Of a DNA stretch of 64,000 bases, positions 8,025 to 43,149 are shown piece by piece. Within the stretch, counting starts at the first letter, position 1. Every line of letters begins with the position of its first letter. The stretch covers positions 72,354,001 to 72,418,000 of the forward strand of contig OZ076413.1 in assembly GCA_964187785.1 (NCBI GenBank). Reading direction: 5' to 3'. The notes beneath the pieces were generated by a model. That model ran no database searches, had not been told where the DNA came from, and saw nothing but the letters and a program-made list of their open reading frames with translations. A program made the position numbers and the translations under genes. Source of the stretch: Amphiscolops sp. MND2022 (taxonomy: Eukaryota).

Positions 8025-8072
8025 ATGGAAAATTCATTGACCAAGATATAATCATGGAAAAATAACTATTAA

Positions 8073-8483: not shown

Positions 8484-8490
8484 ATAATAA

Positions 8491-8685: not shown

Positions 8686-8688
8686 TAA

Positions 8689-9768: not shown

Positions 9769-9777
9769 TTCTATTAA

Positions 9778-10179: not shown

Positions 10180-10225
10180 TTTACAGCCGATCTGTAAATT
10201 AAATATTTTTTATGAATAATAAATT

Positions 10226-12128: not shown

Positions 12129-12271
12129 TCATTTAGTAAAAAATCACTAAATCACTAAGCAAATTCACTAAGAGCATGATGTTTTAAGTGTAACCTTATT
12201 TGCTTAGTGAAAAATATATGCTCTTAGTGAATTTGCTTAGTGATTTTTTACTAAGAAATCAGACCCATTTT

Positions 12272-13279: not shown

Positions 13280-13293
13280 TTATTAGGAAATAA

Positions 13294-14145: not shown

Positions 14146-14162
14146 TTATATTTAAATAAATA

Positions 14163-14906: not shown

Positions 14907-14963
14907 ATACTTGTAAAATTTGAACTAAATACTTTATAAAATTAAGTTTTTATTTAAAGTTAA

Positions 14964-15486: not shown

Positions 15487-15547
15487 ATTTATTCAGTAAA
15501 AATAAAATCAGTATAAAACTTAAATCCTAATTTTTATTCCTATTTAA

Positions 15548-16778: not shown

Positions 16779-16873
16779 ATAAATATAATTTAAATATATA
16801 ATAATACAGCTTTGCTGATATGATAAATAAATTTATTTTTATAAATAATAATTATAAAATAATATATTTATTT

Positions 16874-19800
16874 TTATAAAACATGTGCTCGATCACTTAT
16901 CAACTTCACAAGTTGTTGATGGGTGAGTGCTTGTTTCCAATACCAAACACTGAAATAAATTTCTTCATCTGTTTTCTTGCTACCGTCAACATTTATAGTT
17001 AAATCTTTATAATACAAACCAATTAATTTCAAACAATATATACAAGGGCAATCACCTTTTTGTGTGTGTTTATCCCATGGTAAACTTTGTATTGGATTTA
17101 TATACAAACGTTTATCGTCAAAAGGATTCAAACACAACTTAGGTTGTTTTTCAACTGTGAGGTTGTGTAAATTAGATCTAATTGATATATTTGTAGAACT
17201 TGATGTTTCTGAATTAAACAATGAATTTTGATATTCTTCACATTTGGGAGCTTTTTGTATTCCTTTTTGTTTCGCTTTTTGAATGTTATTATTAATATTA
17301 TTATAACTAAAAGAATATGACTTTGATCGCAATGCTGTGAAAGTATCTAACACCAAAACTGGACTTGTTTCATTTTTCATTTTTCCTATAACTTTTTTGT
17401 TAATAGGATCATATAATTCATCACTTGGGTGTAATTCACTGAAATCAAATTCATCTTTGTTTTCTTGTAAAAAGTTTATTAGTTCTTGGTGGTTTGTATC
17501 AAAACTCAGAATAAAACTATCAGTATCCATGTAGTGTAGTTGTATGGATTGTTTCCAATATGGTTGTAATTTGTTATAATAAAATTCATACATTAATAGT
17601 TTTGATAGTTCTAAAACTGTAAAACCCAAATAAATTGGTTTATCAAAGACTGTTTTTTCTTTATCAAACTTACACACTAAACTTAGAATAATGATCCATG
17701 ATTCCTTTGAAACTTAACTTGGATTGTCTTTTTATTATTTGATCTATTTGAGAATGATCAATGAATTCTAGATTGGTTCTATCTCTTACATTTTCCATAG
17801 TCTTCCCAAAGAAAGCATTATTCATTAATTTATAAAGATCCTTTTCAAAGTTTGTTTTCGCTACTGTGCGTTTCTGAGTATTATGATCGATATATTTACC
17901 TAACCATGGACTTTGTTTAAACTTATAGATAGTATGTATCTTCGTTACTTTCATCCCTTGGTTAAGATAAAACTTAAACATCCTATAATGTATCATATAT
18001 TTCGATTTATTGGTTACATCACACATAAGTTTTGATGTTGGTTTGTAATTAGGTTGATTTATATTATTCATATAACCTGAGAAAAAGTTTGGATCTGCTT
18101 TTGTTTGATACGGACAAAAAGGAAAGTTTTTTGTTTTTTCTTTAATTTCAGCTGGATATTCTAAATCACATTCTATAAAGAATCCATATTCATTATCATC
18201 AGGTATTTGTAATAACTCTTCTACTAATTGCTCTAGATTGTAATTATCTGTGTAATTACACGGATTAAGAGGTAATATTTCGAATTCGCCAGTAGGAAGA
18301 TATTGACTCATTGCCCATCCATATAGATTATTTGCATCGATATATAAGATTTGTTTATTTTCATCAGATTGCACGTGACGATCTCCCATTACACTTGAAA
18401 TTCCTCCACGGATATTATTTTCAAGTAGTAGTAATAATTCTTCACCGGAGGGCAGCTTCGCTGTATCTTTTATAAAGTCTAACTTTATATTAGTCAACTT
18501 CAATCCTGCTTTCCATGTATAACCAGGTAGACTATAAGAGTACAAAGGATTAATTTTATATTCTCGTGTAGAACTTTCCACAAAGTTTTCAAATACATCA
18601 GCTAATTGAAGAACATCCATTTTTAAGTATAACATTGTTAATTCTCTTCCACTTTCAATTTTATTTTTATCAAATAATTCTTGGGTTCTTTTTATATCAT
18701 CATCTGATGGATAAGATTGTGTTAATGTTGACCAATAATCTTCTTTAGTTAAATTTAATGGTTCCTGAAAGTTATCAAGATTTAAGCATTCATAAGGATA
18801 AGCCAATTTCTTTTTAAATATTTTGTCTTTAAATCCATTTTCATCCATTATTGGGAAACTGTCTAAACTCTTAACTAATTTATCTAAACTACTACTTAGA
18901 AAACGATATGAATCTAAGAATATTAAGCAACCTACTTGAATTGATACATAATTTTCCATTGACTTTGGGATTATTTTTGGTTCATACCCCTTTTCGAAAG
19001 CTTGTATTAAGAGTTCTTGAAATATAAGATGACAATCATACCCAGAAAAGTTATGGAAAAATATAGGAACAAAACTTGATGACTTTTGTTTTACATTTAT
19101 GTTACATATATTATGAGCTGCTCCTCTGTATTTTCCTGTTAGATGATCATGATCTCTAACCTTATCCTCTGTAAAAGGCTCTTCACAAAGCCAACACTCT
19201 TCTGCAAGTTTGAATGATTCTTCTTCTTCAGGAGTTATTTGTAATTCTAACTTTGTTTTAAAATATTCATTTGCTTCTAGTTCTAATTTTAACATTTCCT
19301 TCACAAACCATTCGTTACAATCTGTTCCAAAGTGTGAACTATACTTGTTTCCAAATGTTGAAATTACATAAAAGCCTACTGCAATTGGAATTTGTTTAAA
19401 TAATACTTTGGCATCATTTCCAGGTTGATTAATACATTCAAAATCTGCATATACTCTTATTGGTACAGGAACTTCCATATAATAATCTTCAAACTTTAAC
19501 TGATTCTTCCAACTGAATGTGATATTAGTTGGTTGTTGATTTATACATCTTTCCATATGATCAAGTAGAACCGGTTCTGAACTGAATGCTGTTAAACATC
19601 TTCTACACACCCATCGCATGTGTGAATCTTTATTTATTAAACAATGCAACTTTCTTATTAGACAATAGTGATTTTCATACAATAACAAATCTATTTGTGG
19701 TTGGAAGTAATTTTTGTTAATATGAATTGGTGTTAAAACTGCTCCGGTGAGTTCAAAAACATTTACGTTCAAGTTATTAAGTTTTTCGAACTTGGGAATG

Positions 19801-20696
19801 TCTTTAACTTTCATAGGGAATTCCAATCCTTTCAGGTTAAGTTTATTCATATGAATAACATATTTTGATGTTATATTTTTATTATCCTCAACTGGAAATA
19901 AATATGCTAATATACACCATACAAAACAAAATTGATCATTATTTTTTATATTTATAATTGACTGATTCGTTTTATATTTTGGTGGTAACTCAATATATGA
20001 AGATGCTCGAATATCATTAACTTTATATATTTCTAATATAACTTCTTCTATTTCTTGAAATTGAAAACCTGATCCTTCTAATTGTTCATCATCTAATTTC
20101 TGTATTAATGTGTTATGAGTATCTTGTTGTGTACCGAAGGTGCTTTGCATGTGATTATATATTAAATCTGATTTTATCCATCTTTTAAATACTTCTTCTT
20201 CTCCATTGATTATTTTTGAAAATTTAGCTAGATAACTCAATTGATATTTATATCGGGGAAAATAATTTTTACTAAGTAAGTCATTTATGTTATGTTTAAG
20301 ATTTTCAGTTGGATTTATTTTCAGTTTAATGTATGTGTTTTCATTCACAATTATATTTACTCCATTACCGGAGGGCAGCAAAGCTGTACCGAAATCTGTA
20401 ATACAGCTTCGCTGGCTTTGTATACTGTTTTGTTGACGGTTTTGTAAATGAATTTCACTTTGGAAATGTCTTGTTGTATCAGATATATATTTACTACAAT
20501 CTTCACATCATATTTTATTGATGCGGTTTTTATGTTCATCTGAATTTAAATGAGAACTTTTATCTGAGATAGGCATATATAAATTACATTTTTTACAATA
20601 ATATTGATTTAATTTTTCAAGATGTTTTACTGATTTTAGATGATCAGACTTGAAAGCTTTTTTATAATTTAAATTACAAATACTACAATTCTCCAT
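16874..20696 (-). CDS. polB: Protein-primed family B DNA polymerase (frameshifted), with N-terminal zinc fingers and an endonuclease-VII-like insert
   Basis: YADFEC (Exo I), FHNFSGYD (Exo II), YIDANNLYG (Pol A), KLMNNAFFGKT (Pol B), YMDTDS (Pol C). The CWLC...VRDHDHLTGKYRGAAHNICN insert is present. Frameshift at ~17675 and further shifts at 20380-20510. Confidence 0.93.
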
Positions 20697-20879
20697 TTCT
20701 ATTTATTAAAGAAAAAATAGTTTAATTAAAAATTTTTCAATTATAATTTTTATAAAAAATTGGTGAAAAATATTTTAATTTTGTGGTGGTAAGGTATTAA
20801 AGCTTGCCACAGATTTGTATGATAAATACAGCTTTGCTGGCATCGCATATTTCATTTAAGAAAATTTTTATAATCTGTA

Positions 20880-21290
20880 ATCAGAAACTCAAGACCTTTC
20901 CAATGATGTATCACACATGGCAATATCTTAAACTTTTATAATCTCTACATGTTTAAGGGTTTCAGGTTTGAGATGGTATAGTTTCAGTTGTGGGTACCCA
21001 ATCATGAAAATATTCAAAATCTGTGATCTCCAACTCAAGACCTTTCCAATGATGTATCATACACTGTGATATGTTGAACTTTTATAATCTCTACATGTTC
21101 AAGGGTTTCAGGTTTTTCGAAGTTTCAGATAGTATACATTTGTACTAGGTTTTCGAATTGTATCTAGATAGATAGCCCTTGTCGAGACCTTTTCAATGGT
21201 ATATTATACTTTGTTGTAACTCAAATATTCGTTGAGTTATGGCTTTTTTCCTGACCTATTAGTAATCTCTACATGTTTAAGAGTGAAAGT
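20880..21290 (+). repeat. Three degenerate ~150-bp direct repeats in the Polinton right subterminal region
   Basis: AAGACCTTTCCAATGATGTATCA and TAATCTCTACATGTT recur near 20890, 21037 and 21185. Confidence 0.75.
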
Positions 21291-21464
21291 CCGAATGGAA
21301 AAAGTCTCTTTGCCAGTTTCATTTCTTCGGCCATGCTGTTTGCTGTGACTGTAGAGAGAAAAGTGAAAAATGAAATTTTGGTGCATTCCGAATGCACCTC
21401 AAGCATTAGAGTGCACAGGCAAGCCTTATTTGCTCAAAGCGCAAGATAGTGCTTTCAATATCTC

Positions 21465-21812
21465 GGATTCCACGACCATACCTTTAACCGTGCAAAATTG
21501 GCAAATTACGTCATTTGTCCCGGATTCCACGGATTTAGTCGTGGATTCCAGTAACAAATGCTTAGCTGTACGAACTGTCGGCATGCAGCGGTGTCCCGGA
21601 TTCCACAAAAACGTAAGTTTTGCGAAATGAACCAATCAGATTGCAGAAATCATAAATTTCCTGGATTCCACGACCTTATGCTTGACGCGATACGCGGCAT
21701 CTCTTCTTGAATTAAATTCAACTGTCGTGGAATCCAAGACACGCTTAACATCAAAGAGAAGTTTTGTCCTGGATTCCACGACTTTTCTCAATTTTCGTGT
21801 CCCGGATTCCAC
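21465..21812. repeat. Array of eight GGATTCCA(C) motifs
   Basis: Copies at ~21465, 21522, 21543, 21598, 21663, 21727 (inverted), 21771 and 21804. Confidence 0.8.
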
Positions 21813-22154
21813 GAAAACAGCAAAATAGCTTGCCTGTGCACTGTAATGAGGTCAGACGACCATCTGGTGCGTGAAATTTTGTTTGAAATTTATATGGTGG
21901 TAATTTTTCCAACAGTTGTGGTGTCCACTTGTGCACACCATTGAATTTATCAATAATGAAAAATGTGTTCATCATTTTTATATGTAATTTTTCAATGGGT
22001 AAAAATGAAGAAAAAAACTCGTTTTCAATTTGGACACTTGTGTTTTCTACTTGAACGCATTTGGTAAGTATTCATTTTTTCTTCACGATGTGGTAATAAT
22101 TCTATTATACGTCGATGGAGGTTAGTTCAATTTTGGTTTGTGACAAATACTTCT

Positions 22155-22320
22155 TTGGAAAATTTGTGCATCGATTTTTATTTTGTTAAATTTTTAGTTG
22201 CGAAAAAAGGCTAGTTTTTAGATGGTTTGATTGGTATTTTGTGAAAAAAGATTAATTTTTTAATGATTTTACGAGCTTAAATTTTTTTTATATATTAGGA
22301 ACGGGAATTCGATTACTACT
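22155..22320 (-). repeat. Polinton right TIR
   Basis: Ends in GATTACTACT, followed immediately by the TSD ATCATA. Confidence 0.92.
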
Positions 22321-23900: not shown

Positions 23901-25752
23901 TTTTTTCTGCAACTGGAGTGTGCTTACTTTACTAGCAGCAAGCAGTGTTAACGAACCCTCAGCTTGAAATTTCAGAGCTGTTCATCTTTGGAAACGGTGA
24001 GCTATTCAGCCTGATCTTAGTCTCATTCTTTTCTCAATTTCAACAACAACTTGATCGACCGGAACCACCAAATTTCTCTCTTTTTGGAGACCACTCTTCT
24101 GAACAACACTTTTGGGCAGTTTCCGATTAACATTTCATTGAATGTCTCCATTAGTGTTGCGGTTCCTCGTCAAAAAATTTTGTCCAATAATTAGATCGCC
24201 AATCATCGCCTAAGGGCGGCTTTTCTCAAGACTGGGGTTGAATTGTGAACTTCTGATCTGAAACGACTGCTCCGGTTTCTCTTGCTAACAAATTTTTTCT
24301 TCGATGTACTCAATTAGTTTGAACACAAATTTTCAAAGACTGTGAATTTTCAAACAGTGACATGGAAATGATCATGCTATAGTTATATTTAAAATAGTTG
24401 AATACCAATTGAAGGCTTTTATTGTTTGTTGCTGATTTTTTGTGTAGATATTGATAAATGTTTACAGCTCAACATTGCCGAGCTCATCGTTTTTCATGAT
24501 ATTTTGTTAGTAAACACTAGTCTCGGGGTAGAGAGTCTCATAAATGAGAGCCTCGGAAAATGGTGAAAACGCCATGCAGCCAATTGCCTTTTAGTCTCGT
24601 TTTTCGGATCAGTCTCAAATTGTAAAGCAGTGACTATGGTGGGAATTTCTATCAAATGTATGCACGCCAATTAATTGCACAGGGGATGATATTCTTTGGC
24701 CTACCAACGTACCAATAAAATAGTGAAAGTATTCATTCGACTGTTAAGCTTACTGTAAGTATATTTCAATAAAAGCAAAACCCATGAAAGGTCGCATCGA
24801 GTCAAAAATGGCCGGCCGTGTACAGACAAAAGCGCCCGAATGCAAAACGTCTCAATACTTTTTGATTTGATTTCACAACCTCTAATTAATCGTAATTGAA
24901 GGTGTTCCAATACAAGATTAACTCACTGGTAATTCCAGATTTCACATTCTCGCACCTAACAAATGTCAATTGAAAATTACTTAAACTGCTAATTTTGGCA
25001 TTTCTGAACAAACTATATCAATTTTTTAATAAATAAATTTGTCAATAAACTGGTTTGAGATGAAATACTGATAATTATTTTATTGGAGCGAGGAACTTGA
25101 AATTGGTTTTGAAGAAGAGTCAACAAATCTTTTGTAGTCTTTGATTGGGGCGCTTTTGACTGCGTATTTTGGGCGCGTTTGTGTGGGGCGCCTTCGGACA
25201 GGGATAACAAATTCACGAAGATTACTACTGTAACAGTCGTCTTTTTAATATGTTCAATTTGTATCTCTTCGAATGCTAGGAGCGACTGTTAGGGAGTTAT
25301 TTGGTGCTACGTAATATTTTGAATATTTACTTTTTGGTCACTGTGTGGTACACCTTGAGTAAAGAAAAACTTTATTGCTTTTAGAAAAGAACTTTAATTA
25401 TTATATTTATCTTGATAGCAGATAGAATGAAAAACAACAAATAAATACAGTATAAATTACTAACATATTTTTGGGCAAAATGATGGATGAAAATCAGCAA
25501 CTGATCTGTATTAGAGAAAATTTGCTTACTGAGCAAATTAGGTAAGTTCTCGTTTATTGTAAAAAAAAACGAGACGAGGAGGGAAATGATGATTAATGTC
25601 TAGGTACCAGATGACAAAGACGTTTGGGAAATATGTTGAGTAATATCTCGGTTAACTGTTGAATCACTATGAGCGATTAAATGTATAAATGTATATACTA
25701 GAAGAAACAAACTAAAATGAAAACTGCAGGCATAAATTTAACAGCGCAGCTT

Positions 25753-25920
25753 AGCAACGGTGCATTGATGAAGCAAGATTGAGCAAAAATTTTACAACAT
25801 AGCAACGGCGCCTTGATAAAGCAAAAATGAGCAAAAATTTTAGAACATAGCAACAGCGCCTTGATAAAGCAAAAATGAGCAAAAATTTTACAACATAGCA
25901 ACGGCGCCTTGATAAAATAA
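25753..25920. repeat. 48-bp minisatellite (~3.5 copies)
   Basis: AGCAACGGCGCCTTGATAAAGCAAAAATGAGCAAAAATTTTACAACAT in tandem, with no spacers. Confidence 0.9.
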
Positions 25921-25954
25921 TACACAATCCTTTTTAAAGAGATGATTCATTGAA

Positions 25955-26199
25955 TAAGCTGTTTTGCAAAAGTGCCTAGTCATTTCCTGTCTTGTACGAG
26001 GAATGCTTTGTCATATTACTCCCGGAAATGTACGTTTGCGTCCCGCAAATGAGGATCACAGGTCCATGAGCTCATGGAGAGACTTCAGAAGGGGGTCGCA
26101 CCTGCGACACGTTCGTAGTCCTTGCTCTCGTCGGTGTACGCCGGCCAGGTCACAACAGCGATAGACTTCTAGTAGTTCGTGGGTAAGAAGAATACGTTT
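25955..26199 (-). repeat. 3' LTR (the part shared with the 5' copy)
   Basis: Matches 40377-40621 with 8 substitutions in 245 bp by manual comparison. Confidence 0.85.
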
Positions 26200-26411
26200 C
26201 GTTGGGTTACCAGGGGCAGGTATTTACTAAGTGCTTGTGGGACTGAGGGGTTTTTGTCAGGGTGTAGCAAGTGTAACAAGGACTTCACGTGGTCATTGAT
26301 GGTATCACTGGAAGCTGTAGGGAGACAATGAATGACGTCAAACAGTAGCTGCTTCGGGGCCATGAATTCATCAAGAATCAAGGGCATTTTCTTAAAATGG
26401 TAAAAAACCAT
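26056..26411 (-). CDS. J-domain (DnaJ/Hsp40-like) accessory protein with Cys-rich C-terminus, one frameshift near 26200
   Basis: LFDVIHCLPTASSDTINDHVKSLLHLLHPDKNPSVPQALSKYLPLVTQ / KRILLTHELLEVYRCCDLAG...TCRRCDPLL*. It has the HPD motif and J-domain helix spacing. Confidence 0.75.
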
Positions 26412-26416
26412 ATTCT

Positions 26417-26812
26417 TTAATGCGGGACAAATCGTTGTGTGGACGTAATATTTGTGAGGGCCGTTACGTCCTCAGACCATGAAAACGTTCGTTTTAAAAG
26501 TTCCTCGTTTACTTCATTGAGTGTATTGACACGGGCGCGAAGCGACTGTATTTGGTCTTTCAGGTCAGCGTTGAGCTGCTCGAGTGACTTGACGTCTTGT
26601 TGGCGAGAAGCGAGTTGTTCCTCCACGTCTTCCAGACGTTGACATAACTGGCGTGCAGATGTCATTTCGGCATGGACAACGTGAACATAATGGTCACCAT
26701 CTATTTGGCACTGGATCTCGAAGTCCTCAGTATCGGGGTGCACTCTAGAGGGCACGGGTTCACACAGGCAATTTTCGGTAGGTTTGTCCACTTGCGCCAC
26801 AGCATCAATCAT
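26417..26812 (-). CDS. Accessory ORF with leucine-zipper-like coiled coil (131 aa), intact only in unit 1
   Basis: Heptads LEDVEEQLASRQQDVKSLEQLNADLKDQIQSLRARVNTLNEVNEELL. Its start overlaps the upstream ORF stop (ATGA). Copies 2 and 3 carry a 5-nt deletion. Confidence 0.65.
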   Translation of the reverse strand: MIDAVAQVDKPTENCLCEPVPSRVHPDTEDFEIQCQIDGDHYVHVVHAEMTSARQLCQRLEDVEEQLASRQQDVKSLEQLNADLKDQIQSLRARVNTLNEVNEELLKRTFSWSEDVTALTNITSTQRFVPH

Positions 26813-27120
26813 GGCGGGCGCTGTTTGGGTGGGATTTTCATGGGTGGAAGGGGGCGGTAAGTGAATATCGGTGGTAGGCCTTGTGAAATTACGGCGGGAC
26901 GAATCCGCGTCCAGACGCTGAAGTACAGCGGTCCCGCTATGCGAGTTGACTCGCAGGACCCGGTAGTCGTCATCGTGGAGAATGCGGACCGTATCAAACC
27001 TGGTAATCTTGGATACACGGCCAGAACTCGTGTATACGGGAACTCCGGCAGGGCGCTTTGCAGGGAACCTGAAAAAAAATGGGCGTTATAACGTTCAAAG
27101 ATATAAAAATATAGAAACAT
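26809..27120 (-). CDS. Accessory ORF of unknown function (103 aa, Pro-rich C-terminus)
   Basis: Intact in unit 1, coupled to the next ORF by an ATGA overlap. A possible acceptor TTTTTTTCAG lies near its start. Confidence 0.5.
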   Translation of the reverse strand: MFLYFYIFERYNAHFFSGSLQSALPEFPYTRVLAVYPRLPGLIRSAFSTMTTTGSCESTRIAGPLYFSVWTRIRPAVISQGLPPIFTYRPLPPMKIPPKQRPP

Positions 27121-30100
27121 CCAGAATACCTTTACAATTTGAACTTAGGGCACGTAGTTACATTATTCTCAGGTGAAGTGCGATTTTCAATTGTTTTTTT
27201 TAAAATTACAATGGTGAGATGATGATCATTGAGGGGACACGCTAACGTGTACAAGTACAGGGTTCCAAAAAGGAACAGGTACAGTGATGTACCAGTGGGG
27301 GAACACGGAAACGTGCTAAAAGGGGTCCACTATTAAGCGGAACTAGTACGAAACGTACGTTAGAGAGGGGCACATAACATGCACTTGATGGGGCACAAAA
27401 ATGCGTTGATTATACAATGTAAGTAGAGGGCAAACACTTTGCAGTCTATGTAGTAGACTCTGTGTATAAGGGAGCGGTGATATCTGGATGAACACGTAGG
27501 GGGACAGGTGGTTGAGATCAAGAGGCATATTTTGAACGTCCGGATTGGTTTCATGGTTTTAGAGGCCAAAGGCTTAAGTGCCGTAAATTCACTGAGGTTC
27601 AGTTCGAGAAATGCTGACGCGTCGTCAGTGGCCGTTGATGTGGAAAGATTATGTGAAGAAAACGTCCTGTCGAGGTTTTGAAGAATTTGTGGGGGTGTAA
27701 AAACAACGTTTTCCATTGACGACGGAAAAGAGTGAAACTGATAGTAAAAGTCAACAACGAAAGGGTTATGGACACAGTAGAGAAAAGTACGGCTCTACGG
27801 AAGGGCAAGTAAGAAGCAAGAGCTTTCGAAGTTGCTGGTGGGACGGAGGAATAATATTCGGCAATCGGTCGTGTCAACTTGTCAACGGATTCCGTGGACA
27901 TCCGTTGCACATCGGGTAATTTCGCCAACTCCATGCGGACGCTGTTTAAAATGGACTGGCGGGCTTCACCAACTGAGTAAACCGGGAATAAATGATTGAC
28001 AGTAGGCACACGACGGAAAATTTGTTCTAACGATGGCGTTAGGGCAACAGTAGCATAACAGGGGTCTGGATTGGATTCGCAGAAATCCATGTCAGGGGCT
28101 AGAACCAGGTCGCCTTGATTCAGCGAGAGAACGCTGGAACAGCTCGGACGAATAACACAAGCCTGACAGTGAATGGTGGAAACAGACACGCCGTGCTGAC
28201 GGCTGTCATTCTTGATCCTTAAAAAGGGGTCGCGCGATATGACATGGTAGAGGCCATCTGCCAGGTAGAAGGCTTGAGGGGCTTGAGGGAAGTAACACAG
28301 ACTTCACCAGACAGTTTGGCAAAGCAGGGATGTCATGATTATATAGGAGGGAGCCCAAACACAGGAGTGTTTCATCGGTCGTTGTTGAGAACCCTTTGAG
28401 ACACAATTTGATCCGGTTATTGTGTATGTAACAATGACTTCACGTGGTCATTGATGGTATCACTGGAAGCTGTAGGGAGACAATGAATGACGTCAAACAG
28501 TAGCTGCTTCGGGGCCATGAATTCATCAAGAATCAAGGGCATTTTCTCGAAATGGTAAAAAACCATATTCTTTAATGCGGGACAAATCGTTGTGTGGACG
28601 TAATATTTGTGAGGGCCGTTACGTCCTCAGACCATGAAAACGTTCGTTTTAAAAGTTCCTCGTTTACTTCATTGAGTGTATTGAGACGGGCGCGAAGCGA
28701 CTGTATTTGGTCTTTCAGGTCAGCGTTGAGCTGCTCGAGTGACTTGACGTCTTGTTGGCGAGAAGCGAGTTGTTCCTCCACGTCTTCCAGACGTTGACAT
28801 AACTGGCGTGCAGATGTCATTTCGGACAACGTGAACATAATGGTCACCATCTATTTGGCACTGGATCTCGAAGTCCTCAGTATCGGGGTGCACTCTAGGG
28901 GGCACGGGTTCACACAGGCAATTTTCGGTAGGTTCGTCCACTTGCGCCACAGCATCAATCATGGCGGGCGCTGTTTGGGTGGGATTTTCATGGGTGGAAG
29001 GGGGCGGTAAGTGGATATCGGTGGTAGGCCTTGTGAAATTACGGCGGGACGAATCCGCGTCCAGACGCTGAAGTACAGCGGTCCCGCTAGGCGAGTTGAC
29101 TCGCAGGACCCAGTAGTCGTCATCGTGGAGAATGCGGACCGTATCAAACCTGGTAATCTTGGATACACGGCCAGAACTCGTGTATACGGGAACTCCGGCA
29201 GGGCGCTTTGCAGGAAACCTGAAAAAAATGGGCGTTATAACGTTCAAAGATATAAAAATATAGAAACATCCAGAATACCTTTACAATTTGAACTTAGGGC
29301 ACGTAGTTACATTATTCTCAAGTGAAGTGCGATTTTCAATTTTTTAAATTACAATGGTGAGATGATGATCATTGAGGGGACACGCCAACGTGTACAAGTA
29401 CAGGGTTCCAAAAAGGAACAGGTACAGTGATGTACCAGTGGGGGAACACGGAAACGTGCTAAAAGGGGTCCACTATTAAGCGGAACTAGTACGAAACGTA
29501 CGTTAGAGAGGGGCACATAACATGCACTTGATGGGGCACAAAAATGCGTTGATTATACAATGTAAGTAGAGGGCAAACACTTTGCAGTCTATGTAGTAGA
29601 CTCTGTGTATAAGGGAGCGGTGATATCTGGATAAACACGTAGGGGGACAGGTGGTTGAGATCAAGAGGCATATTTTGAACGTCCGGATTGATGTTTCATG
29701 GTTTTAGAGGCCAAAGGCTTAAGTGCCGTAAATTCACTGAGGTTCAGTTCGAGAAATGCTGACGCGTCGTCAGTGGCCGTTGATGTGGAAAGATTATGTG
29801 AAGAAAACGTCCTGTCGAGGTTTTGAAGAATTTGTGGGGGTGTAAAAACAACGTTTTCCATTGACGACGGAAAAGAGTGAAACTGATAGTAAAAGTCAAC
29901 AACGAAAGGGTTATGGACACAGTAGAGAAAAGTACGGCTCTACGGAAGGGCAAGTAAGAAGCAAGAGCTTTCGAAGTTGCTGGTGGGATGGAGGAATAAT
30001 ATTCGGCAATCGGTCGTGTCAACTTGTCAACGGATTCGGTGGACATCCGTTGCACATCGGGTAATTTCGCCAACTCCATGCGGACGCTGTTTAAAATGGA

Positions 30101-31789
30101 CTGGCGGGCTTCACCAACTGAGTAAACCGGGAATAAATGATTGACAGTAGGCACACGACGGAAAATTTGTTCTAACGATGGCGTTAGGGCAACAGTAGCA
30201 TAACAGGGGTCTGGATTGGATTCGCAGAAATCCATGTCAGGGGCTAGAACCAGGTCGCCTTGATTCAGCGAGAGAACGCTGGAACAGCTCGGACGAATAA
30301 CACAAGCCTGACAGTGAATGGTGGAAACAGACACGCCGTGCTGACGGCTGTCATTCTTGATCCTTAAAAAGGGGTCGCGCGATATGACATGGTAGAGGCC
30401 ATCTGCCAGGTAGAAGGCTTGAGGGGCTTGAGGGAAGTAACACAGACTTCACCAGACAGTTTGGCAAAGCAGGGATGTCATGATTATATAGGAGGGAGCC
30501 CAAACACAGGAGTGTTTCATCGGTCGTTGTTGAGAACCCTTTGAGACACAATTTGATCCGGTTATTGTGTATGTAACAAGGACTTCACGTGGTCATTGAT
30601 GGTATCACTGGAAGCTGTAGGGAGACAATGAATGACGTCAAACAGTAGCTGCTTCGGGGCCATGAATTCATCAAGAATCAAGGGCATTTTCTTGAAATGG
30701 TAAAAAACCATATTCTTTAATGCGGGACAAATCGTTGTGTGGACGTAATATTTGTGAGGGCCGTTACGTCCTCAGACCATGAAAACGTTCGTTTTAAAAG
30801 TTCCTCGTTTACTTCATTGAGTGTATTGAGACGGGCGCGAAGCGACTGTATTTGGTCTTTCAGGTCAGCGTTGAGCTGCTCGAGTGACTTGACGTCTTGT
30901 TGGCGAGAAGCGAGTTGTTCCTCCACGTCTTCCAGACGTTGACATAACTGGCGTGCAGATGTCATTTCGGACAACGTGAACATAATGGTCACCATCTATT
31001 TGGCACTGGATCTCGAAGTCCTCAGTATCGGGGTGCACTCTAGAGGGCACGGGTTCACACAGGCAATTTTCGGTAGGTTCGTCCACTTGCGCCACAGCAT
31101 CAATCATGGCGGGCGCTGTTTGGGTGGGATTTTCATGGGTGGAAGGGGGCGGTAAGTGGATATCGGTGGTAGGCCTTGTGAAATTACGGCGGGACGAATC
31201 CGCGTCCAGACGCTGAAGTACAGCGGTCCCGCTAGGCGAGTTGACTCGCAGGACCCGGTAGTCGTCATCGTGGAGAATGCGGACCGTATCAAACCTGGTA
31301 ATCTTGGATACACGGCCAGAACTCCGGCAGGGCGCTTTGCAGGAAGCCTGAAAAAAATGGGCGTTATAACGTTCAAAGATATAAAAATATAGAAACATCC
31401 AGAATACCTTTACAATTTGAACTTAGGGCACGTAGTTACATTATTCTCAAGTGAAGTGCGATTTTCAATTTTTTTAATTACAATGGTGAGATGATGATCA
31501 TTGAGGGGACACGCTAACGTGTACAAGTACAGGGTTCCAAAAAGGAACAGGTACAGTGATGTACCAGTGGGGGAACACGGAAACGTGCTAAAAGGGGTCC
31601 ACTATTAAGCGGAACTAGTACGAAACGTACGTTAGAGAGGGGCACATAACATGCACTTGATGGGGCACAAAAATGCGTTGATTATACAATGTAAGTAGAG
31701 GGCAAACACTTTGCAGTCTATGTAGTAGACTCTGTGTATAAGGGAGCGGTGATATCTGGATAAACACGTAGGGGGACAGGTGGTTGAGA

Positions 31790-34021
31790 TCAAGAGGCAT
31801 ATTTTGAACGTCCGGATTGATGTTTCATGGTTTTAGAGGCCAAAGGCTTAAGTGCCGTAAATTCACTGAGGTTCAGTTCGAGAAATGCTGACGCGTCGTC
31901 AGTGGCCGTTGATGTGGAAAGATTATGTGAAGAAAACGTCCTGTCGAGGTTTTGAAGAATTTGTGGGGGTGTAAAAACAACGTTTTCCATTGACGACGGA
32001 AAAGAGTGAAACTGATAGTAAAAGTCAACAACGAAAGGGTTATGGACACAGTAGAGAAAAGTACGGCTCTACGGAAGGGCAAGTAAGAAGCAAGAGCTTT
32101 CGAAGTTGCTGGTGGGATGGAGGAATAATATTCGGCAATCGGTCGTGTCAACTTGTCAACGGATTCGGTGGACATCCGTTGCACATCGGGTAATTTCGCC
32201 AACTCCATGCGGACGCTGTTTAAAATGGACTGGCGGGCTTCACCAACTGAGTAAACCGGGAATAAATGATTGACAGTAGGCACACGACGGAAAATTTGTT
32301 CTAACGATGGCGTTAGGGCAACAGTAGCATAACAGGGGTCTGGATTGGATTCGCAGAAATCCATGTCAGGGGCTAGAACCAGGTCGCCTTGATTCAGCGA
32401 GAGAACGCTGGAACAGCTCGGACGAATAACACAAGCCTGACAGTGAATGGTGGAAACAGACACGCCGTGCTGACGGCTGTCATTCTTGATCCTTAAAAAG
32501 GGGTCGCGCGATATGACATGGTAGAGGCCATCTGCCAGGTAGAAGGCTTGAGGGGCTTGAGGGAAGTAACACAGACTTCACCAGACAGTTTCGCAAAGCA
32601 GGGATTTCATGATTCTATAGGGGGGAGCCCAAACACAGGAGTGTTTCATCGGTCGTTGTTGAGAACCCTTTGAGACACAATTTGATCCGGTTATTACCTG
32701 AACATTGTTGGAGGGTGGAACTGTCCAGTTCAGCATAGCGTGTGTTATCAGTGGAAACAGCGAGGAACGGCTTCGAAAAGGTAAAGATGGAAGCAGTTTT
32801 GTTATCTCCGTTTGGTTGGTACAATGGTATTGCCTTGTAGATAGCGAATGTGGACGATCGAGAGTTCATTGGAATTCCCAAGACTACTGAAATACCACTC
32901 GGGATTAGGGCAATCTCTAAAACCAACTGAATTTCATAGTAGATAGCTTCAGGTCCAGGCTGTATAGCCGGTGACAGTTTGGTGCCGCGGCGGACTTCAT
33001 CCTCGGATAAATCTTTTACAATGGCAGCTATTTCGGCGGGGAGGAGGAATTGCGGCGTGATGTGACCACCGGCGAGAGAAGAAATTGTCGAGAATAAGTT
33101 GATTTTGTACGCGTAAAAAGCAGCACGGTATGCCTTGATGTTGGTATACAGCGATCCCAAGTCCGATACGAGGCTTCTTATGTCCTGATGGAACATAAAA
33201 TGTTGCGCCGGTGTCATAAGACATGCTTTGTACTGAATCAGTTGTCCTTTTATATGGTTGATCCGATCGGTTAAATTGTGAAGATGCTTGCTCACCGCAT
33301 CTCGAATTGTTTTCTTGTGTTTTCTTCACTTCATTTCCCAGCAGAAAGAAGTTCTCATCGTTGCGTGATTGCACACGACGTAGTGTTTCGATCGTGGCCT
33401 TTTTGTGTGCCAAAAGGTGTTCCACATCCCTAGCGGGGGCACTTATCATCACAGAGACTGAAAATTGATAGGGCCGTACATGCGGCATCCTTCACGGGGT
33501 CACCAAGATTTAGACCCGCACCTGCTGCAACAGCGCCAACAAAACGCCGATTCCGTGTCATGTGTTCCGGGCCCCTTTGATAAAATTTAGGGAGGAACGA
33601 TTGGGTTATATCGGACAATTCTAATTGTTCCTTCGTAGCTTCTCTAATTTACGTTTGTATAACAGTGATCCGCTTAGACAACTGTTCCAATAACAGACCA
33701 TAAATCTCGTTTATATTCGAGAATTTACACTACTTTTGTTGGTACATACCGCCAATACCAACAACACGATGCCTTGCTGCCAGTAACAGCTGTTTGGCAT
33801 CCGTGAGATTCACTTCTGGGAGCTTTGGGAAAGGTATAAAGACGCGAACTTTACTCTCACTCTCTGAGGTCACTGCCTGGTGTTTGAAGAGAAAGGATGC
33901 ACCTTTCTTGAAGACAGGGATTGGGGGTGCATCATTGACGTGGGTCGAGAAGTGGGTTACGGGGGTGCAGGCTGGAAGGTCGTAGAGCAGAAAGAAGGAT
34001 AGCAACGCTCGAAAGTCGATC
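31790..34021 (-). pseudogene. env: Envelope class I fusion glycoprotein (baculovirus F/errantivirus type), frameshifted
   Basis: Signal-like LLSFFLLY, furin site RNRR|FVGAVAAGAGL (33544/33543), heptad region, SL..GHITPQFLLP, Cys-rich domain, and C-terminal TM AVLFSTVSITLSLLTFTISFTLF. Confidence 0.85.
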
Positions 34022-34258
34022 CTAAAAGAAGACTACAGTGAAAATTCGGGACGCAGATGGAATTAGAGTATAGATAGCATTTAATATGACTGGCTTTGTT
34101 TGCTATCAGGGGAATTAAACTGCGTCAAATCCGGTGGTAGTTTAGCTTGTCATAAGGGTTGTGCCTTCCGCTGCGCAGCAGTGTTATCTCTGAGTTGACG
34201 ACGAGGTTGAACAGACGTGCCCGGGGGTGTGAGTGAGCGGGAAGCGCGTTCAACTTCT

Positions 34259-37200
34259 TCACGGAACCAAGCTTGTGATCGGGCCGGGGATAGTGATATG
34301 ACTCCGGGGAGGACACTGGGATTCTTCCGGAGACTCCATGGGTCGAGGTCCACTAGGGGGTGTTAGTGAACAACGATGCAGTGGTCCCATTGGCGTGCCG
34401 TTGTTCGAGGGTACTGGTCGTGTCGACGACGGGGTGAGTGGTGATGAGCTTGAGGGAGCGGAGAAGGGTAAGGTAGGAGTTGATGCTACACCGGAACTGG
34501 GTCCACCTGACGACGGATAGCTGGCCGCCGGATGGTGCAACGAGGCAGTGTAGTGTTCACAGCCTTGATCGTGGTCTATTGTAGGCGGATTCTGAGTCGG
34601 AGGGGATTCCGCCCCGAGAAATGGTGTGTTTAGGTGACTTACGTTGCGTGTTGGAACGTTAGAGGTAGGTGGAGGTTCACGGAATAGTTTGAGGCGATCA
34701 TAATGAACGACAAGTCCTTTCATGGTTTTCAACTCCTGTATTTTGAATGTGATGTCGTCAATACGCTTCAAAATGTTATATGGGCCTCGCCAAGGACTGA
34801 AGGTTTTCGGAGATTTCCCTGGAAGGACAACAGGATTGTGCAGTGGAACTTTTTGACCTTCATTGTACAGAGGACTGTGCACCTTCCGGTTATAAATGGC
34901 ATTTCGACGTTTTTGATTGGAATTTAATGCGGTACGAGCTAGATCGTAAACTTTCAGGAAGGCTTGCTGTCTTTCATAGACGTAATTGTGATGGCTATCG
35001 GATCGATTGATGGCTATCGTTGGTTTTTCGATAAAGGTAGAGGTCCCATGAAATCGATACCGATGTGATGGAAGGGATAGCTGGCATGCCATTCGATCAA
35101 GGAATGTCGATGGTGTTTCGGAGGGTGATTACGTTTTTGACATTGTTCACATCGACTAACGAACAAACGAACGTCATCTTGGAATCCTGGCCAATAAAAG
35201 CGTTGACGAACTTTTTCAGTGACTTTAAAGCTACCCAGATGACCTCCGGTTGAAGAAGAGTGTAACGAAGTGAGAAGTGATTGGACCATAGAGACATGTA
35301 TCAATTGTTGCAAGACGTGCATGTTGGTTTTGAGTGTGAATTGACGACACAAAATGTTATTAGAAAGCACCAAACTTTCAAACCCATTCGCCAACTGCCA
35401 GAGCTTCCGCGGTTGTCCCTGGAGTTCGGAATTGCCAGGGGGCTTCCCGCGCGATACACAAGTTATCAAAAGCTTCAAATGCGGGTCTTCGCGCTGAGCT
35501 CGTTCTAAGTCAGTCAAGGAATGTTGCTCGTTCAACATCTTTTTTCCCTTGAGTGTTGTATCTGAATTATCAGAAGTGCCCGTCACATTTGAAGCTTGAG
35601 TTTGCATTTCGTTCTGTTGGGAGTCCAGCAAGAAAACAATGATCTGGATTGTTGAGGATCGAAAAACATCGTTGATGATGGCCTTCAGTTTGTTCCAATC
35701 AAGCCTGTCTAACCCACAACCTACACGGGGAAGACTAATATTTGTTATCCCATTTGTCTCTGCATGACTTCTCAATGCTTCGAGTGAAGTCCGTAGAGCT
35801 GTGTAGGTCGGTTTATGGTAGTAGCGAGCTTTTGTGATCAAATGGTAAACGAAACGACCGGGATCAGAGACCCATTGAGGCTATAAGACCATTTTGTCTA
35901 TTGCTTCTTTGTCAGGATACGTTGAAGGAAACGTTTGAAGTCAGCGGAGATACAGTGGGCTATTGAGTCCTTGCTTTGCAGGATGTCACCATAAACCTCA
36001 TTGTACTCGCAACTCCGTGCTGCTTTCGGCTGTGGTCGGTTAGGCCACTCTGAGTCGTTGTCGACTTCCACTGAACACTTTTTGAGCTTGAGGAGATGGC
36101 TTTTAGGCCTCTAAGAGGAGTCCTTGAAAGACCGTCCGCATGGCCAATTGTGTTTCCGCGGCGATGAATTACCTCATAGTTGAATGCTGCCAACTTTTCG
36201 AGCCAACGAGCTGTGAGAGAATCAGGGTCTTTAAAGTTATGGAGCCACTGTAAGGCTCGATGGTCAGTCACAATGAGAAAGTTTTGTCCCAGAAGATAGT
36301 GTTAAGTGGCGGGTAAAATGAACAACTGCCAAAAGTTCCCTTTTTGTGGCTGAGTATCTGGTTTGGGCCTTCGTGAGGGCTTTCGATGCGTAACAGATGG
36401 CCCGTTCTAGACCGTTCTGAACTAGGGCCAATACAGCTCCCATAGCTGTCAAACTCGCGTCCGTATACAGAATAAAGGGCTCCTTCATCGGAGGAAAAAC
36501 CAATATAGGTGTTGAAGTGAGTTTGTGTTTTGAAGCGTCAAAAGACTCTTGAGCTTCAGGAGTCCACTGGAATTCGGTCGCTGAGTCACTTCCTGCGTGA
36601 ATTGGTCTGGCAATCGCGGCGAAGTCCTTCTCGTACCGTCTATAGTAGGAGCAAAGTCCCAAGAAGGACTTGACTTTTGTGGGGTTATTAGGAACTGGAA
36701 AGGCTTTGACTGCTCTCACCTTGACCGGGTCAGCCTCGAGGCCATCTTTGCTGATGATGTGTCCGAGGAACGGAACACGAGTTCGGAAAAACTCACATTT
36801 GGTGGGGTTAATCTTTAAATTAGCGTTGCGAAACCGTTCCAAGACTGCTCTGAGGCGTTCAAGGTGCTCTTCAGCAGTTCGGGCAAAAATGATGCAGTCA
36901 TCTAAATAAGGGACTGTAATCTTCCAGGTGAGACCAATAAGGACACATTCCAATAAACTCTGGAATGTATTGGGGCTGCCGGTAAGTCCCATCGGCATCC
37001 GAAGCCATTTGTAGGATCCGAACGGTGTGCTGAAAGCAGTTAAATCTTGGCTTTGGACATCCATCGGTAACTGGTAGAAACCCCACGAAATGTCAATCGT
37101 CGTGAATAAACTACTTCCTTCTAAGGTATCGAAGATTTCTTCGATCGAAGGAATCGGCCAACAGGACTTGATTGTCTGATTATTTAGTTGTCGGTAGTCA

Positions 37201-38350
37201 ATCACCAGCCGGAGCTTGCCATTTTTCTTTGGAACAAGCATGGCGGGAGCGCTGTACGGGCTATGGCACGGGGTGATGAGCTCCTTTTCTAGGAAAGCGT
37301 CGATTTTTTTCGTAAGTCCTGTTTCAAATGAAGCGGCATTCTGCGATTTGGAAGTTTAATCGGACGAGACCCAGGATAGACATCTATTTTATGTGACGTA
37401 ACATCACACTTGCCAATATCCCCTTCGTTCTTTGAGAAAACATCCGAAAGTTCATCGATCAGTGCGCTGAATTGTGACTTGATTGGGGCATAAAGTTCGT
37501 GATCAATGGATCCCTTCACTAAATTTAGGTCGTATTTTTCATCAACCATATCCGTCATTTTCGTGTCATTTGCGAATCCCGTTTGGGCAGTTCCAATGTT
37601 CTGTATACGCTCCCTGGAAATAACTTCTGAACTTCCAAGTGTTGTATGTTTATGAACTGTAATAGGCGAGTCCCCAGAATTCTCGATAACAAGCGGGATA
37701 GTATCCTCCGTTAGTGTGAACAACATGTCCGGTGCTGTTAAATCTTTGCCATTGAACTTCTGATGAGGTTCAAACGATCCTACTAGCTCAACTGGGGATC
37801 GCTTCCAGTCAGGGATACAATCTGGGACGATCATTGAATGTCCTGCCGGAATACTGACTGTATGCCGTGCGATTACGCGGAATACTTGATCAAATGGGAT
37901 TTTGAATGTTTTGTGGTATAATGGTACCGATGAACCATGGGCAATCTGGAGCGTTTTCTTCGAGAACAAGGGATCACATTTATGATCTTCTAAAAAGTCC
38001 AGTCCAATTAGTCAATCTGCTTCCGATTTTGCCAAACCGTGAATTTGGTGATGGAAAATCTTTGAACCTATTTGGACAGGTAGGATTACGGTGCCACGGG
38101 TGTCTATAGGTAGTTGGTTAGCGGTTTTCAGGTGTGTGGTCGACGGGGTTAGTTGAAGTGCTCTTTGGGTCTGTAGGATGTCGAAAGTTTCGCTGCTAAG
38201 ACAAGAGACACTTGCTTCACTATCGCACACTGCTTCTATGGGGTGATCGAAAATGTGTAATTTCACAAAAACACTTCGATGGTCGACCACAGAGTTTAAC
38301 GTTTGCGTTGGTGGGTCTTTTGAAGTACCGTTGTCTGCTCGTCGACCCAT
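34259..38350 (-). pseudogene. pol: pol: protease, RT, RNase H, macrodomain, integrase (catalytic core deleted)
   Basis: PR VCDSEAS; RT LVIDYR, TAFST, MPMGL, YLDD; RH LYTDAS, RELLAV, TDHRAL; IN H..GHLG..RFYWPG..C..C and IDFMGPL. Several frameshifts. Confidence 0.92.
35630..36000 (-). CDS. TARG1/OARD1-like macrodomain inside pol
   Basis: GDIL..KDSIAHCISADFK...YHLITKARYYHKPTY..L..SLEAL.SH...NGITNISLPRVGCGLDRLDW closely follows TARG1 motifs (SLAHCIS, LITK, PRIGCGLDRL). Confidence 0.88.
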
Positions 38351-39590
38351 GGGCGTAGACGATTTCAGTTGAAAATTTCGGCGTTTTGACTACAGTCACT
38401 CGGCCACATTTGAAGCATGCTTTACATTTCTTTGAGTCATGGTTCGTTCTTTTACAGTGTTTGCATGGGGCTCTGGTGTCAACATTTCGGCCATTCGAGC
38501 GGTTTCCCGCACCATTCTGAGTGTGTCGTTTGTGATTTTGGTTTTTATGGTAGTTGTTAGTCTTCTTGTTCTCAAATCGACAAGCTCGACCTCTTTGGGA
38601 GTCAGTACTGCTCGCGCGCGACGCCGACTCGTGATTGGGAGTAGCACTTCGCTGCCGATTGTTTCTCTGCTCCGGTTTTGGCAATGCATTTCGAATGCCT
38701 TCAGTCAGGGTGCTGACCAAATCCTCCATGATTTGATGATTGGGCTGTTCAGGATGCTCACGGGAAATCCTGTTTACACTGCTTCAGCCGTAGTGTGACT
38801 AGAGGAGGGAGCGCATTTCTCGATTTCGAGAAACGAATTCAGCTCCATGGCTAAGGCCAAAGCATCGTCTGCAGTGACTGGTTTCGACTTGCGCAGCTCC
38901 CAGCGAAGGGTGGAATCACTCGAACCTTCGATGAAGCTGGTCAAAACAATTTGTTCGATTAGGTGGGGAAAGGCGCGATAAGCGCGACGCGCTAGAGTGC
39001 GAATGTCGCAAAGGAAGGCCGAAATATCTTGATTCGGTTGCTGGCGGGCTGCTTTCAATCGAGCTTTAAGGATATCGACGTTGGTAGTGTAATTTTACCG
39101 GAAGGCATCAACCAGCATAGTGAAATCAGTTTGTTGCGCGGCTGACACCGTAGTGTAAAAGTGCAACGCGTTGGCACGCAGACGAAGAGCAAAATAGTGA
39201 GGCCGATTATCGTGGGTAGTCGAATACCACCCAGAGAGTAATGCGGCTGTATTGAATTGCTGTAAATAGTCTTCAAGTCGCCTAAACCTGTGAAGCTTTC
39301 CGGCATCAAGCAAGAATGAAGGGGAGTTACGTAGGGCGTGCCACCCTGACCTAACGGGGTCGGGAAGGGTGTAACCGGTGTCACTCCCGGCGCTGTAGAC
39401 GAAGTGCTCGCAGTTGAAGAGGATGCCGTAGTCATAACAGGGGTGCTAGCTGAGCTAGAGGTAGTTGTTCACGTAGCAGGAGTGCTGGGGGTGGCTGCGG
39501 TTGGGCCACTGGCAGTAGCTGTGGTCGTAGTGGCCGCTGTTGGGCTGGTTGACAAGTTTTATTCGATTTTTTTTTCTGAAATTATGCACT
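38351..39590 (-). pseudogene. gag: gag (Thr/Ser-rich N-terminus, capsid domain, two zinc knuckles)
   Basis: PESFTG..D.EDYLQQF..AALLSGW, F..LR..AL..Y, F.EG...LRWEL and CKHCKRTNHDSKKCKACFKCGR. Frameshifted. Confidence 0.85.
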
Positions 39591-39593
39591 ATA

Positions 39594-40286
39594 TCAATGG
39601 TGGGGCTGAGTAAGCGTATTGGCATTCATTAGCATTAGCGGATCAGGTATGTAGTTTGCCAGGAATTCCATGTACGCTTTCCAAAGTTGAGCCAAAAGGG
39701 GGTACAAAATACGTTCGATTAACGGGACGTGGGTGAAAATCAGTTGAACGTTTTTGAAATTTCGCGGAACTGAGCCGATTTGTTGGTGGAAATGCTGTTG
39801 GAAATGTAAAGTTTCAAGGCGGTAGTGTAAGACTAGTTGGCTCGGTGTTAGCAAGGGTTCGGGGCGAAAAAGACGTGGAATTTTATGAAAACGTGCTTGA
39901 CAAAAATAACAGGGAATTAAAAGCTCTTGGGGTGCTGTGCGAGGTGAAGATGATAGCGGGAAACTGAAAAGATACATTGCGCAAAGCTATTTCGTTGACA
40001 ATTTTTCGATGGCCTGTGAGCAAATTGTTCGAGTAAGATGGACTTCAAAATCTACTCCGACTAATGCAATTATCACAAACAGTAGCGCGAGTACGACCAT
40101 GAAAAGAAATGTAGCAAATAAACAGGAGGTCGAAGGTGTTTGCGGAAAAAAATCGTTGTAGTCTCTACGAGGGTGGGGGTGATCTTGGGGGACGCGGAAC
40201 AACGTAAACGGGTGGGTTTCTAGAAGCGGAATAGCGTGCCGACATAATAAAACAATATGGAGCAATCTTCTAGTTAATATATTCAT
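39594..40286 (-). CDS. Two extra ORFs upstream of gag (99 aa with a TM helix; 127 aa with CxxC/His)
   Basis: ORFs 39987..40286 (LFATFLFMVVLALLFVIIALVGV) and 39594..39977 (CYFCQARFH...LHYRLETLH) lie between the PBS and gag on the element strand. Confidence 0.5.
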
Positions 40287-40356
40287 ATATTCAAATAAAA
40301 TTATAATAAGTATTTTTTTCTATGTACTCACGATTTGATAAAAAAAACTTAGGGGT

Positions 40357-40374
40357 ATCCTACAGGGTCAGCCA
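40357..40374 (-). promoter_or_regulatory. Putative primer-binding site
   Basis: TGGCTGACCCTGTAGGAT lies 2 nt inside the 5' repeat. It has the TGG + discriminator + 7 + 5 + AT layout of a tRNA 3'-end complement. Confidence 0.6.
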
Positions 40375-40376
40375 GG

Positions 40377-40621
40377 TAAGCTGTTTTGCAAAAGTGCCTA
40401 GTCATTTCCTGTCTTGTACGAGGATTGCTTTGTCATATTACTCCCGGAAATGTAGGTTTGCGTCCCGCAAATGAGGATCACAGGTCGATGAGCTCATGGA
40501 GAGACTTCAGAAGGGGGTCGCACCTGCGACACGTTCGTAGTCCTTGCTCTCGTCGGTGTACTCCGGCCAAGTCACAACAGCGATAGACTTCCAGTAGTTC
40601 GTGGTTAAGTAGAATACGTTT
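40377..40621 (-). repeat. 5' LTR (apparently truncated at its outer end)
   Basis: Direct repeat of 25955-26199. No TG start, and flanked by scrambled filler sequence. Confidence 0.8.

Positions 40622-42777: not shown

Positions 42778-43149
<372 letters not shown>

Follow-up and report, generated by a model that had tools for sequence, protein, structure and literature searches.

The element in the window, as we call the whole stretch of 64,000 nucleotides that was analysed, is a dead, partly triplicated copy of a Ty3/gypsy family with an F-type env. Members of this family carry two leader genes in front of gag and, between env and the LTR, a single gene for a J-domain protein. The favoured reading, to which we assign a probability of roughly 0.55, is that the family runs an expression programme of the complex-retrovirus type, in which the J protein would be made from a spliced message and would bring host Hsp70 to whatever target its N-terminal barrel binds.

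Results

Structure of the window copy

The element extends over positions 25229–40621 on the minus strand, on which all features described below are located. Comparison with unbroken relatives by tblastn revealed that sORF1, gag, pol, env and the J gene are each interrupted by stops or frameshifts, and about 460 bp of the integrase core are gone with respect to the C4 copy. Screening of 23 window ORFs against Pfam returned RVT_1, RNase H, Integrase_H2C2 and Baculo_F, which bear out on this strand the gag, pol and env genes of the original prediction, as well as the integrase C-terminus and weak macrodomain and DnaJ matches.

The true 3′ LTR (25229–26015) is 787 bp long and matches the C3 and C4 copies, its ends being set by comparison with the C4 LTR. 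It contains a 48-bp tandem repeat (25752–25916) and the donor motif AT|GTTAGT at 25464. Self-comparison further revealed three tandem units of about 2.14 kb within 26272–32695, each composed of the 3′ half of env, a spacer and the 5′ part of the J gene. The units are 97.9–98.7% identical, and their J acceptors are situated at 31347, 29218 and 27068. Similar tandem arrays are also present in other decayed copies in the same genome.

The 5′ end of the copy is rearranged. Here, a copy of the J-gene end and the first ~60 nt of the LTR (40377–40621) are joined to the leader, and the copy lacks the 5′ LTR, the PBS and 210 nt of leader. The resulting 245-bp repeat (25955–26199 and 40377–40621), which encodes the final ~47 codons of the J gene and includes the ~60 nt of LTR start, had been taken for the LTR, with element limits at 25955 and 40621. 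This assignment was rejected, since the repeat encodes the J-gene end and the real LTRs measure 650–870 bp; the true 3′ LTR reaches beyond the lower limit. Likewise, the sequence read as a PBS at the 5′ end turned out to be leader sequence from a point 210 nt past the genuine tRNA-Leu PBS.

A family with a shared layout in the same genome

Five subfamilies in the same genome share the order LTR, sORF1, sORF2, gag, pol with a TARG1-type macrodomain, env, single J gene and LTR. Searches of this genome gave 44 matches at the DNA level, at least 142 with an unbroken J protein (121 of 281 candidates scored) and 64 with sORF2. Twenty-nine stretches were fetched, of which 27 were annotated (C12a and C1a were left out), 20 of these chosen by a J match and seven by the DNA search. 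The order gag-pol-env-J is found in 20 of the 27, the other seven being truncated or deleted. An unbiased test of the J linkage is provided by the five stretches that were chosen solely by an env DNA match, all of which have a J ORF behind env. Judged by eye, a J match lies within 11 kb downstream of 7/8 sORF2 matches of the C12b type and 16/18 of the C8a type; of the remaining three, two have J at about 40 kb and one has no listed J match.

LTR pairs are present in 20 of the 27 stretches, with a length of ~650–870 bp where complete and an identity of 98–100% in several cases, and the family has been active recently. Target-site duplications of 4 bp were observed in 11 of 12 checked copies (in some after a boundary shift of 1–2 nt), and the PBS matches tRNA-Leu(CAG) (2/6 loci called).

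Outside this genome, a profile search returned 139 clusters at E < 1e-10, and the top external matches are 35–84% identical to the own-genome proteins. One of 121 candidates from JGI metagenomes was a relative, and none of 26 candidates among viral contigs was.

The J-protein gene

Pro-rich, coiled-coil and J-domain coding sequence is present after env, as had been predicted. However, these are parts of one gene and not separate ORFs, since a single frame of 300–420 aa with an HPD motif is found in 15 of the 27 stretches. In the window, the full-length unit of the gene lies at 26056–27068, with its acceptor at 27068 and frame breaks near 26425 and 26190; it was delineated by tblastn with an unbroken relative, Pfam DnaJ, and a structural model combined with fold searches. 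The gene is located between env and the LTR, occupies the same place in all five subfamilies and codes for 330–380 aa, arranged as a KOW/SH3-like barrel, a Pro/Cys linker, a coiled coil, a J domain with HPD and a Cys tail.

With a cut-off of 27.8 bits, Pfam DnaJ scores 21.9 bits in the broken window piece and 31–35 bits in unbroken relatives. In an alignment of 13 rows with 27–55% identity to the first row, HPDK, a CxC in the linker and a terminal CxxC are invariant, the HPD being kept in 13/13 rows; neither a conserved Met nor an LxCxE motif is seen in this alignment. Database relatives of the J protein include some without an intact HPD, mostly fragments or decayed copies.

The model of the J protein (pLDDT 75, pTM 0.38) displays an N-terminal β barrel, a disordered linker, a long coiled coil and the J domain. 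Superposition by VIA-align retrieved J domains up to a Z of 9.6 (rmsd 2.3, 74 residues), and the position of HPD within the J fold, between helices II and III, agrees with J-domain class C. The barrel is closest to Spt5 KOW4 (Z 7.8, rmsd 2.1, 62 residues), followed by a NusG KOW and a Tudor domain, and Foldseek agrees with VIA-align on the protein (best E 1e-3). In these model comparisons the barrel shows a common fold, as KOW, Tudor and SH3 domains all match, and a Z of 7.8 does not name the client. An ESM Atlas search with the N-terminus gave no usable match, and profile comparison of sORF2 with J gave none.

The leader ORFs

The original prediction placed two ORFs before gag, one with a TM helix, and three behind env. 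The former two were recovered, with the TM helix in the first, whereas the latter three are fragments of the J gene, so that the window copy carries three accessory genes instead of at least five. Five are found only in the C13_8 sister subfamily, which has a second sORF2 (sORF2b) and a 100-aa ORF (sORF3) in addition.

In the window, sORF1 (39987–40245, assigned by alignment and hydropathy) spans ~85 aa and is frameshifted near 40165. Across the family the protein is 75–89 aa long and Pro-rich, with an invariant Cys and one TM helix in 10/10 rows. A strict PPxY motif is found in five of ten rows and is missing from four, while one row has only LPxY. The basic residues are mostly N-terminal of the TM helix, and not C-terminal of it as in the basic patch of the MDG1 type. 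Tentatively, sORF1 may be regarded as a type II membrane protein that acts as adaptor for ubiquitin ligases with WW domains, a role for which the odds are somewhat less than even. A FAST-type reading was rejected, as Gly2 is lacking in 8/8 rows.

The second leader ORF, sORF2, is open in the window and comprises 127 aa (39594–39977, from the alignment). Its relatives are 118–139 aa long and share invariant PC..CQ (CxxC) and HxxxH motifs, from which a small zinc-binding protein is predicted. The sORF2 model reached a pLDDT of 71; searches of Pfam, BFVD, PDB representatives (best Z 3.5) and the ESM Atlas (best value 0.80) found no match.

Gag, Pol and Env

The broken gag gene (38365–39555) encodes two CCHC knuckles and overlaps pol in the −1 frame; a TTTAAAC heptamer is found at the gag stop in 8/11 cases. 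The pol gene (34100–38389, lower end approximate) encodes PR, RT, RNase H, macrodomain, integrase and a Pro-rich tail. It contains several breaks, and the integrase catalytic core is missing between 35001 and 35026. The order PR-RT-RH-IN is that of Ty3/gypsy elements. Compared with PDB entries by profile scores, without a reference tree, RT matches Ty3 RT with an E of 8e-75, followed by MLV (1e-31), foamy virus (2e-29) and HIV (6e-8). RNase H is single and of the gypsy type, without the retroviral tether and second RNase H. The element resembles a complex retrovirus in layout only.

The macrodomain that had been noticed within pol is situated between RNase H and integrase (35629–36008), belongs to the TARG1/OARD1 type and is frameshifted near 35934. 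The macrodomain of a relative matches human C6orf130 with an E of 2e-34. It is present in 23 of 28 stretches, the other five lacking that part of pol. An aligned Lys and Asp, which we take to be the TARG1 catalytic pair, are recovered by a strict pattern in 12 of the 28, including the window. The domain would remove ADP-ribose marks.

The env gene (31720–34021, acceptor at 34021), predicted as an F-type env behind pol, was confirmed as such. It encodes a class I F-type protein with furin site, fusion peptide, TM and tail, is interrupted by stops and frameshifts, and its window piece matches Baculo_F with 26.8 bits, above the cut-off. Among 25 family members, five match Baculo_F and one Fusion_gly, and the whole env protein has no Pfam match in 20. 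RxRR with a hydrophobic peptide and a TM segment are present in all five env proteins examined. A PDB profile search with env produced a weak 'fusion protein' row (E 0.84) and no convincing match. A Pfam Tax match on the 3′ piece of env (E 0.005, below cut-off) was rejected, the stretch being env.

Predicted splice-made start codons

The motif ATGT(A/T)AGT occurs in 14 of 16 5′ LTRs, which represent about five independent lineages, at a distance of 193–241 nt from the LTR end; shuffled LTRs contain 0.016–0.044 such motifs per LTR. In 19 of 27 stretches, according to a pattern that was written from sites already seen, the J frame is preceded by an in-phase, pyrimidine-rich AG|G, which is also found in C12b and in an independent metagenome contig that is 31% identical. 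In the C8a, C1b and C4/window lineages env has an acceptor in the same phase and no ATG before the signal peptide. Three subfamilies have an env ATG of their own, and one env acceptor reads AG|A.

These sites suggest that AT comes from the donor in the 5′ LTR and G from the acceptor of J, in several subfamilies also from that of env, and it is very probable that the AUG of J and of some env genes is built by splicing in this manner. The J protein is likely to be translated from a spliced message. Unspliced RNA would give rise to sORF1, sORF2 and Gag, and to Gag-Pol by a −1 frameshift at TTTAAAC. A mini-exon from the leader ATG to the donor, considered as a shared first exon, was rejected, because the phases differ between subfamilies. 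The same AU|G device has been described for env of the Drosophila springer clade (PMC12992720). There, the AU is provided by an upstream exon, whereas the donor of the present family is part of the LTR and is predicted to be used with the acceptors of both env and J.

Selection and descent

Selection was tested on unbroken natural ORFs in unsaturated pairs. The dN/dS ratio was 0.11 for J (P 5e-15), 0.21 and 0.12 for sORF1, 0.23 for sORF2b and 0.09–0.42 for sORF3, with P < 0.05 in five of six pairs. Between subfamilies synonymous sites are saturated, and pN (0.26–0.57) lies far below pS. A selection signal is absent from the closest pairs, such as J of C3_39/C2_8 (0.49, P 0.17); for sORF2 of C8a/C1c the ratio was 0.79, with one synonymous versus four non-synonymous codons. 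Judged by codon substitution, the accessory genes are under purifying selection.

The RT tree (11 rows) and the J tree (15 rows) recover the same groups, with the window lineage beside C1b/C2a; the split of C13_8 and C3_39 from the rest in the RT tree is weak (74/75). Between subfamilies J is 30–50% and RT 75–86% identical. Co-descent with RT and purifying selection uphold the proposal of a metavirus lineage with conserved accessory genes. It had been envisaged that other copies might lack the ORFs or selection on them, or that the 3′ ORFs might stem from an unrelated inserted element; instead, the ORFs recur in other copies and evolve under purifying selection, and RT and J yield concordant trees.

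Discussion

A proposed targeted co-chaperone

In the favoured reading the J protein acts as a targeted co-chaperone, in which the barrel would dock to the target, the coiled coil would oligomerise and the J domain would trigger host Hsp70. Stimulation of Hsp70 by the J domain is probable. As client, a host nucleoprotein complex controlling transcription, silencing or RNA handling of the element is the leading candidate, with about even odds; it is favoured because J is a separate, presumably spliced gene between env and the LTR, evolves fast and carries a KOW-like barrel. A precedent is the polyomavirus T antigen, whose J domain acts on a complex of the host (PMC7356129). A far wider proposal can be made only with reserve and is rather unlikely: that an entire clade of invertebrate metaviruses arrived independently at the genome plan of complex retroviruses. 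Its members would carry as many as five accessory genes, build start codons by splicing from a donor in the LTR and erase ADP-ribose through a domain of Pol, and their J protein, in the style of T antigen, would direct host Hsp70 to a complex for transcription or silencing and thereby activate the provirus.

The best-surviving alternative, unlikely though it is, regards the J protein as a private co-chaperone for the element's own Gag, Pol or RNA, which would serve RT folding, particle assembly or uncoating and not act on host complexes. KOW-like barrels are able to bind RNA, in keeping with such a function. Moreover, J domains in RNA-virus polyproteins have been proposed to aid folding and assembly (10.1101/2022.02.15.480533), and hepadnaviral RT is reported to be activated by Hsc70/Hsp40 (works cited in PMC7356129). 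However, J diverges far faster (30% identity) than the Gag-Pol it would serve (RT 75–86%). It is also a separate gene and not part of a polyprotein, located in the env-to-LTR interval, which is the place of retroviral regulators.

It is improbable that the J gene was captured from the host as a fragment and retained for an Hsp70-independent role, for example as a scaffold or decoy, or that the leader ORFs are mainly translational control elements. Barrel, linker and coiled coil indeed make up most of the protein, and some database relatives lack an intact HPD, but HPDK is invariant among subfamilies that are only 27–36% identical. Similarly, sORF2 has four invariant Cys/His residues and is duplicated in one subfamily, which is at odds with mere translational control.

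An unrelated element inserted between env and the LTR as the source of the 3′ gene is very improbable, because the J and RT trees agree and the gene holds its place in five subfamilies. An assembly error as the source of the triplication is just as improbable, given that the three units differ by 1.3–2.1% with indels and that other decayed copies have similar arrays. Such an error would leave the family-level claim untouched. Practically untenable, finally, is the original version of five separate accessory ORFs between 245-bp LTRs in this copy: the Pro-rich, coiled-coil and J parts do sit in different frames in the window, and a sister subfamily does have five accessory ORFs, but the former form one frame in 15 of 27 stretches, the LTRs are 650–870 bp long and the repeat codes for the J-gene end.

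Relation to known elements

Among the complex retroviruses, walleye dermal sarcoma virus, foamy viruses and HTLV have genes both ahead of gag and behind env, and the possession of accessory regulators is regarded as a hallmark of the complex retroviruses of vertebrates. The family described here likewise has leader ORFs and, in the interval from env to the 3′ LTR, a regulator-like gene that is predicted from its splice sites to be spliced, whereas its RT is Ty3-like and not retroviral. A gypsy lineage with env and three to five selected accessory genes shows that the same design has arisen in Metaviridae.

Earlier reports describe, each by itself, an F-type env in gypsy elements outside insects, leader sORFs, and macrodomains in retroelements; the J gene is the component for which no published description was found. 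Predicted to be a dedicated Hsp70 co-chaperone gene, it has no counterpart described for a reverse-transcribing element in the literature searched. No LTR element with a J-protein gene was found there, transposon databases (Repbase, Dfam, GyDB) and subscription journals lying outside the scope of this search; the available parts of PMC12440569, PMC2774666 and 10.1101/2021.11.30.470311 contain nothing on a J gene in LTR elements.

F-type env is widespread in invertebrate gypsy elements (PMC13524379). The Env_F 'ancient errantiviruses' of Chary & Hayashi (PMC13524379) share the gag-pol-env order, the F-type env, a tRNA PBS and young multi-copy families, whereas the present family has, in addition, a TARG1 macrodomain in the bridge region and three extra genes. 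The main text of that report yields no match for accessory, macro, J-domain or DnaJ genes and its supplements none for DnaJ, although its table gives coordinates only and such elements could be contained there unannotated.

Polyomavirus T antigens and the J domains of RNA-virus polyproteins also join an HPD J domain to a targeting module (PMC7356129, 10.1101/2022.02.15.480533). In contrast, the J domain is C-terminal here, behind barrel and coiled coil, and belongs to a separate gene of a reverse-transcribing element. The macrodomain is of the same class as human TARG1/OARD1 (C6orf130; PDB 2EEE, 4J5Q) and as the macrodomain ORFs described in fish epsilon-like ERVs (PMC4977317), but is fused into the Pol of a gypsy element, where it separates RNase H from integrase. 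LTR elements of bdelloid rotifers (PMC5408684) likewise have extra ORFs downstream of pol that are often spliced, as do plant elements with their additional ORFs (PMC7264820). These are of the GDSL, DEDDy, CC or TM types and stand in place of env, with DnaJ unmentioned in the available text of both reports, whereas here the extra gene lies beside env.

The small proteins of the family can be assayed singly, and the partners they bind would indicate which host defences these elements meet, such as silencing, ubiquitin or ADP-ribosylation. With respect to the leader, Drosophila MDG1/412 elements similarly place two conserved short ORFs ahead of gag on their unspliced RNA, and one of the two encodes a single TM helix (PMC11952523). 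According to the same source, MDG1 elements are without env, and it is the second ORF that encodes the TM protein, which is FAST-like, N-myristoylated and N-out, while the other ORF encodes an HTH protein. In the present family, by contrast, the TM protein comes first, lacks Gly2 and has a Pro-rich N-terminus with PPxY, and the soluble ORF carries CxxC and HxxxH.

Leader and LTR organization of the Ty3/gypsy family

One subfamily of the env-bearing Ty3/gypsy elements, represented by L041 on contig C13 (L041:3645-5100; G000:C13:8.72 Mb) and its sisters L059, L045, L066 and L069/L070, carries four leader ORFs. These comprise sORF1, two paralogues of sORF2 and an unrelated ORF of 100 aa, which has no match in Pfam and displays dN/dS values of 0.09-0.42.

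In 5' LTRs of the family, e.g. those of L028 and L030, a polypyrimidine-AG site is situated about 100 nt after the predicted splice donor and still within the LTR, which suggests a small optional intron.

Env and the J protein share a PP(R/K)V(Y/H/W)PD-like motif at several loci: in env it stands where the cytoplasmic tail ends, in the J protein it lies within the linker.

Tandem arrays

At G000:C12:54715000-54736000 (L013-L015), about 16 units of approximately 1.28 kb are arranged in tandem, each composed of the end of the J gene, an LTR and a piece of the leader; tandem J arrays can also be observed in further decayed copies of the family. The tRNA-Leu 3' motif has 922 exact matches across the whole genome, and a long tandem array at G000:C8:35.59-35.64 Mb contains it.

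Other features of the window

A short exon on the plus strand (window ~42850-42930) resembles, by its motif, glutamine:fructose-6-phosphate amidotransferase, and gave no match in Pfam. An AT-rich Polinton/Maverick of 14.4 kb (window 7852-22318) combines terminal inverted repeats and long open frames with an rve integrase, a double-jelly-roll capsid and an A32-like ATPase. On the plus strand, a BEL/Pao pol of 1177 aa (window 60469-63999) stays open up to the end of the window.
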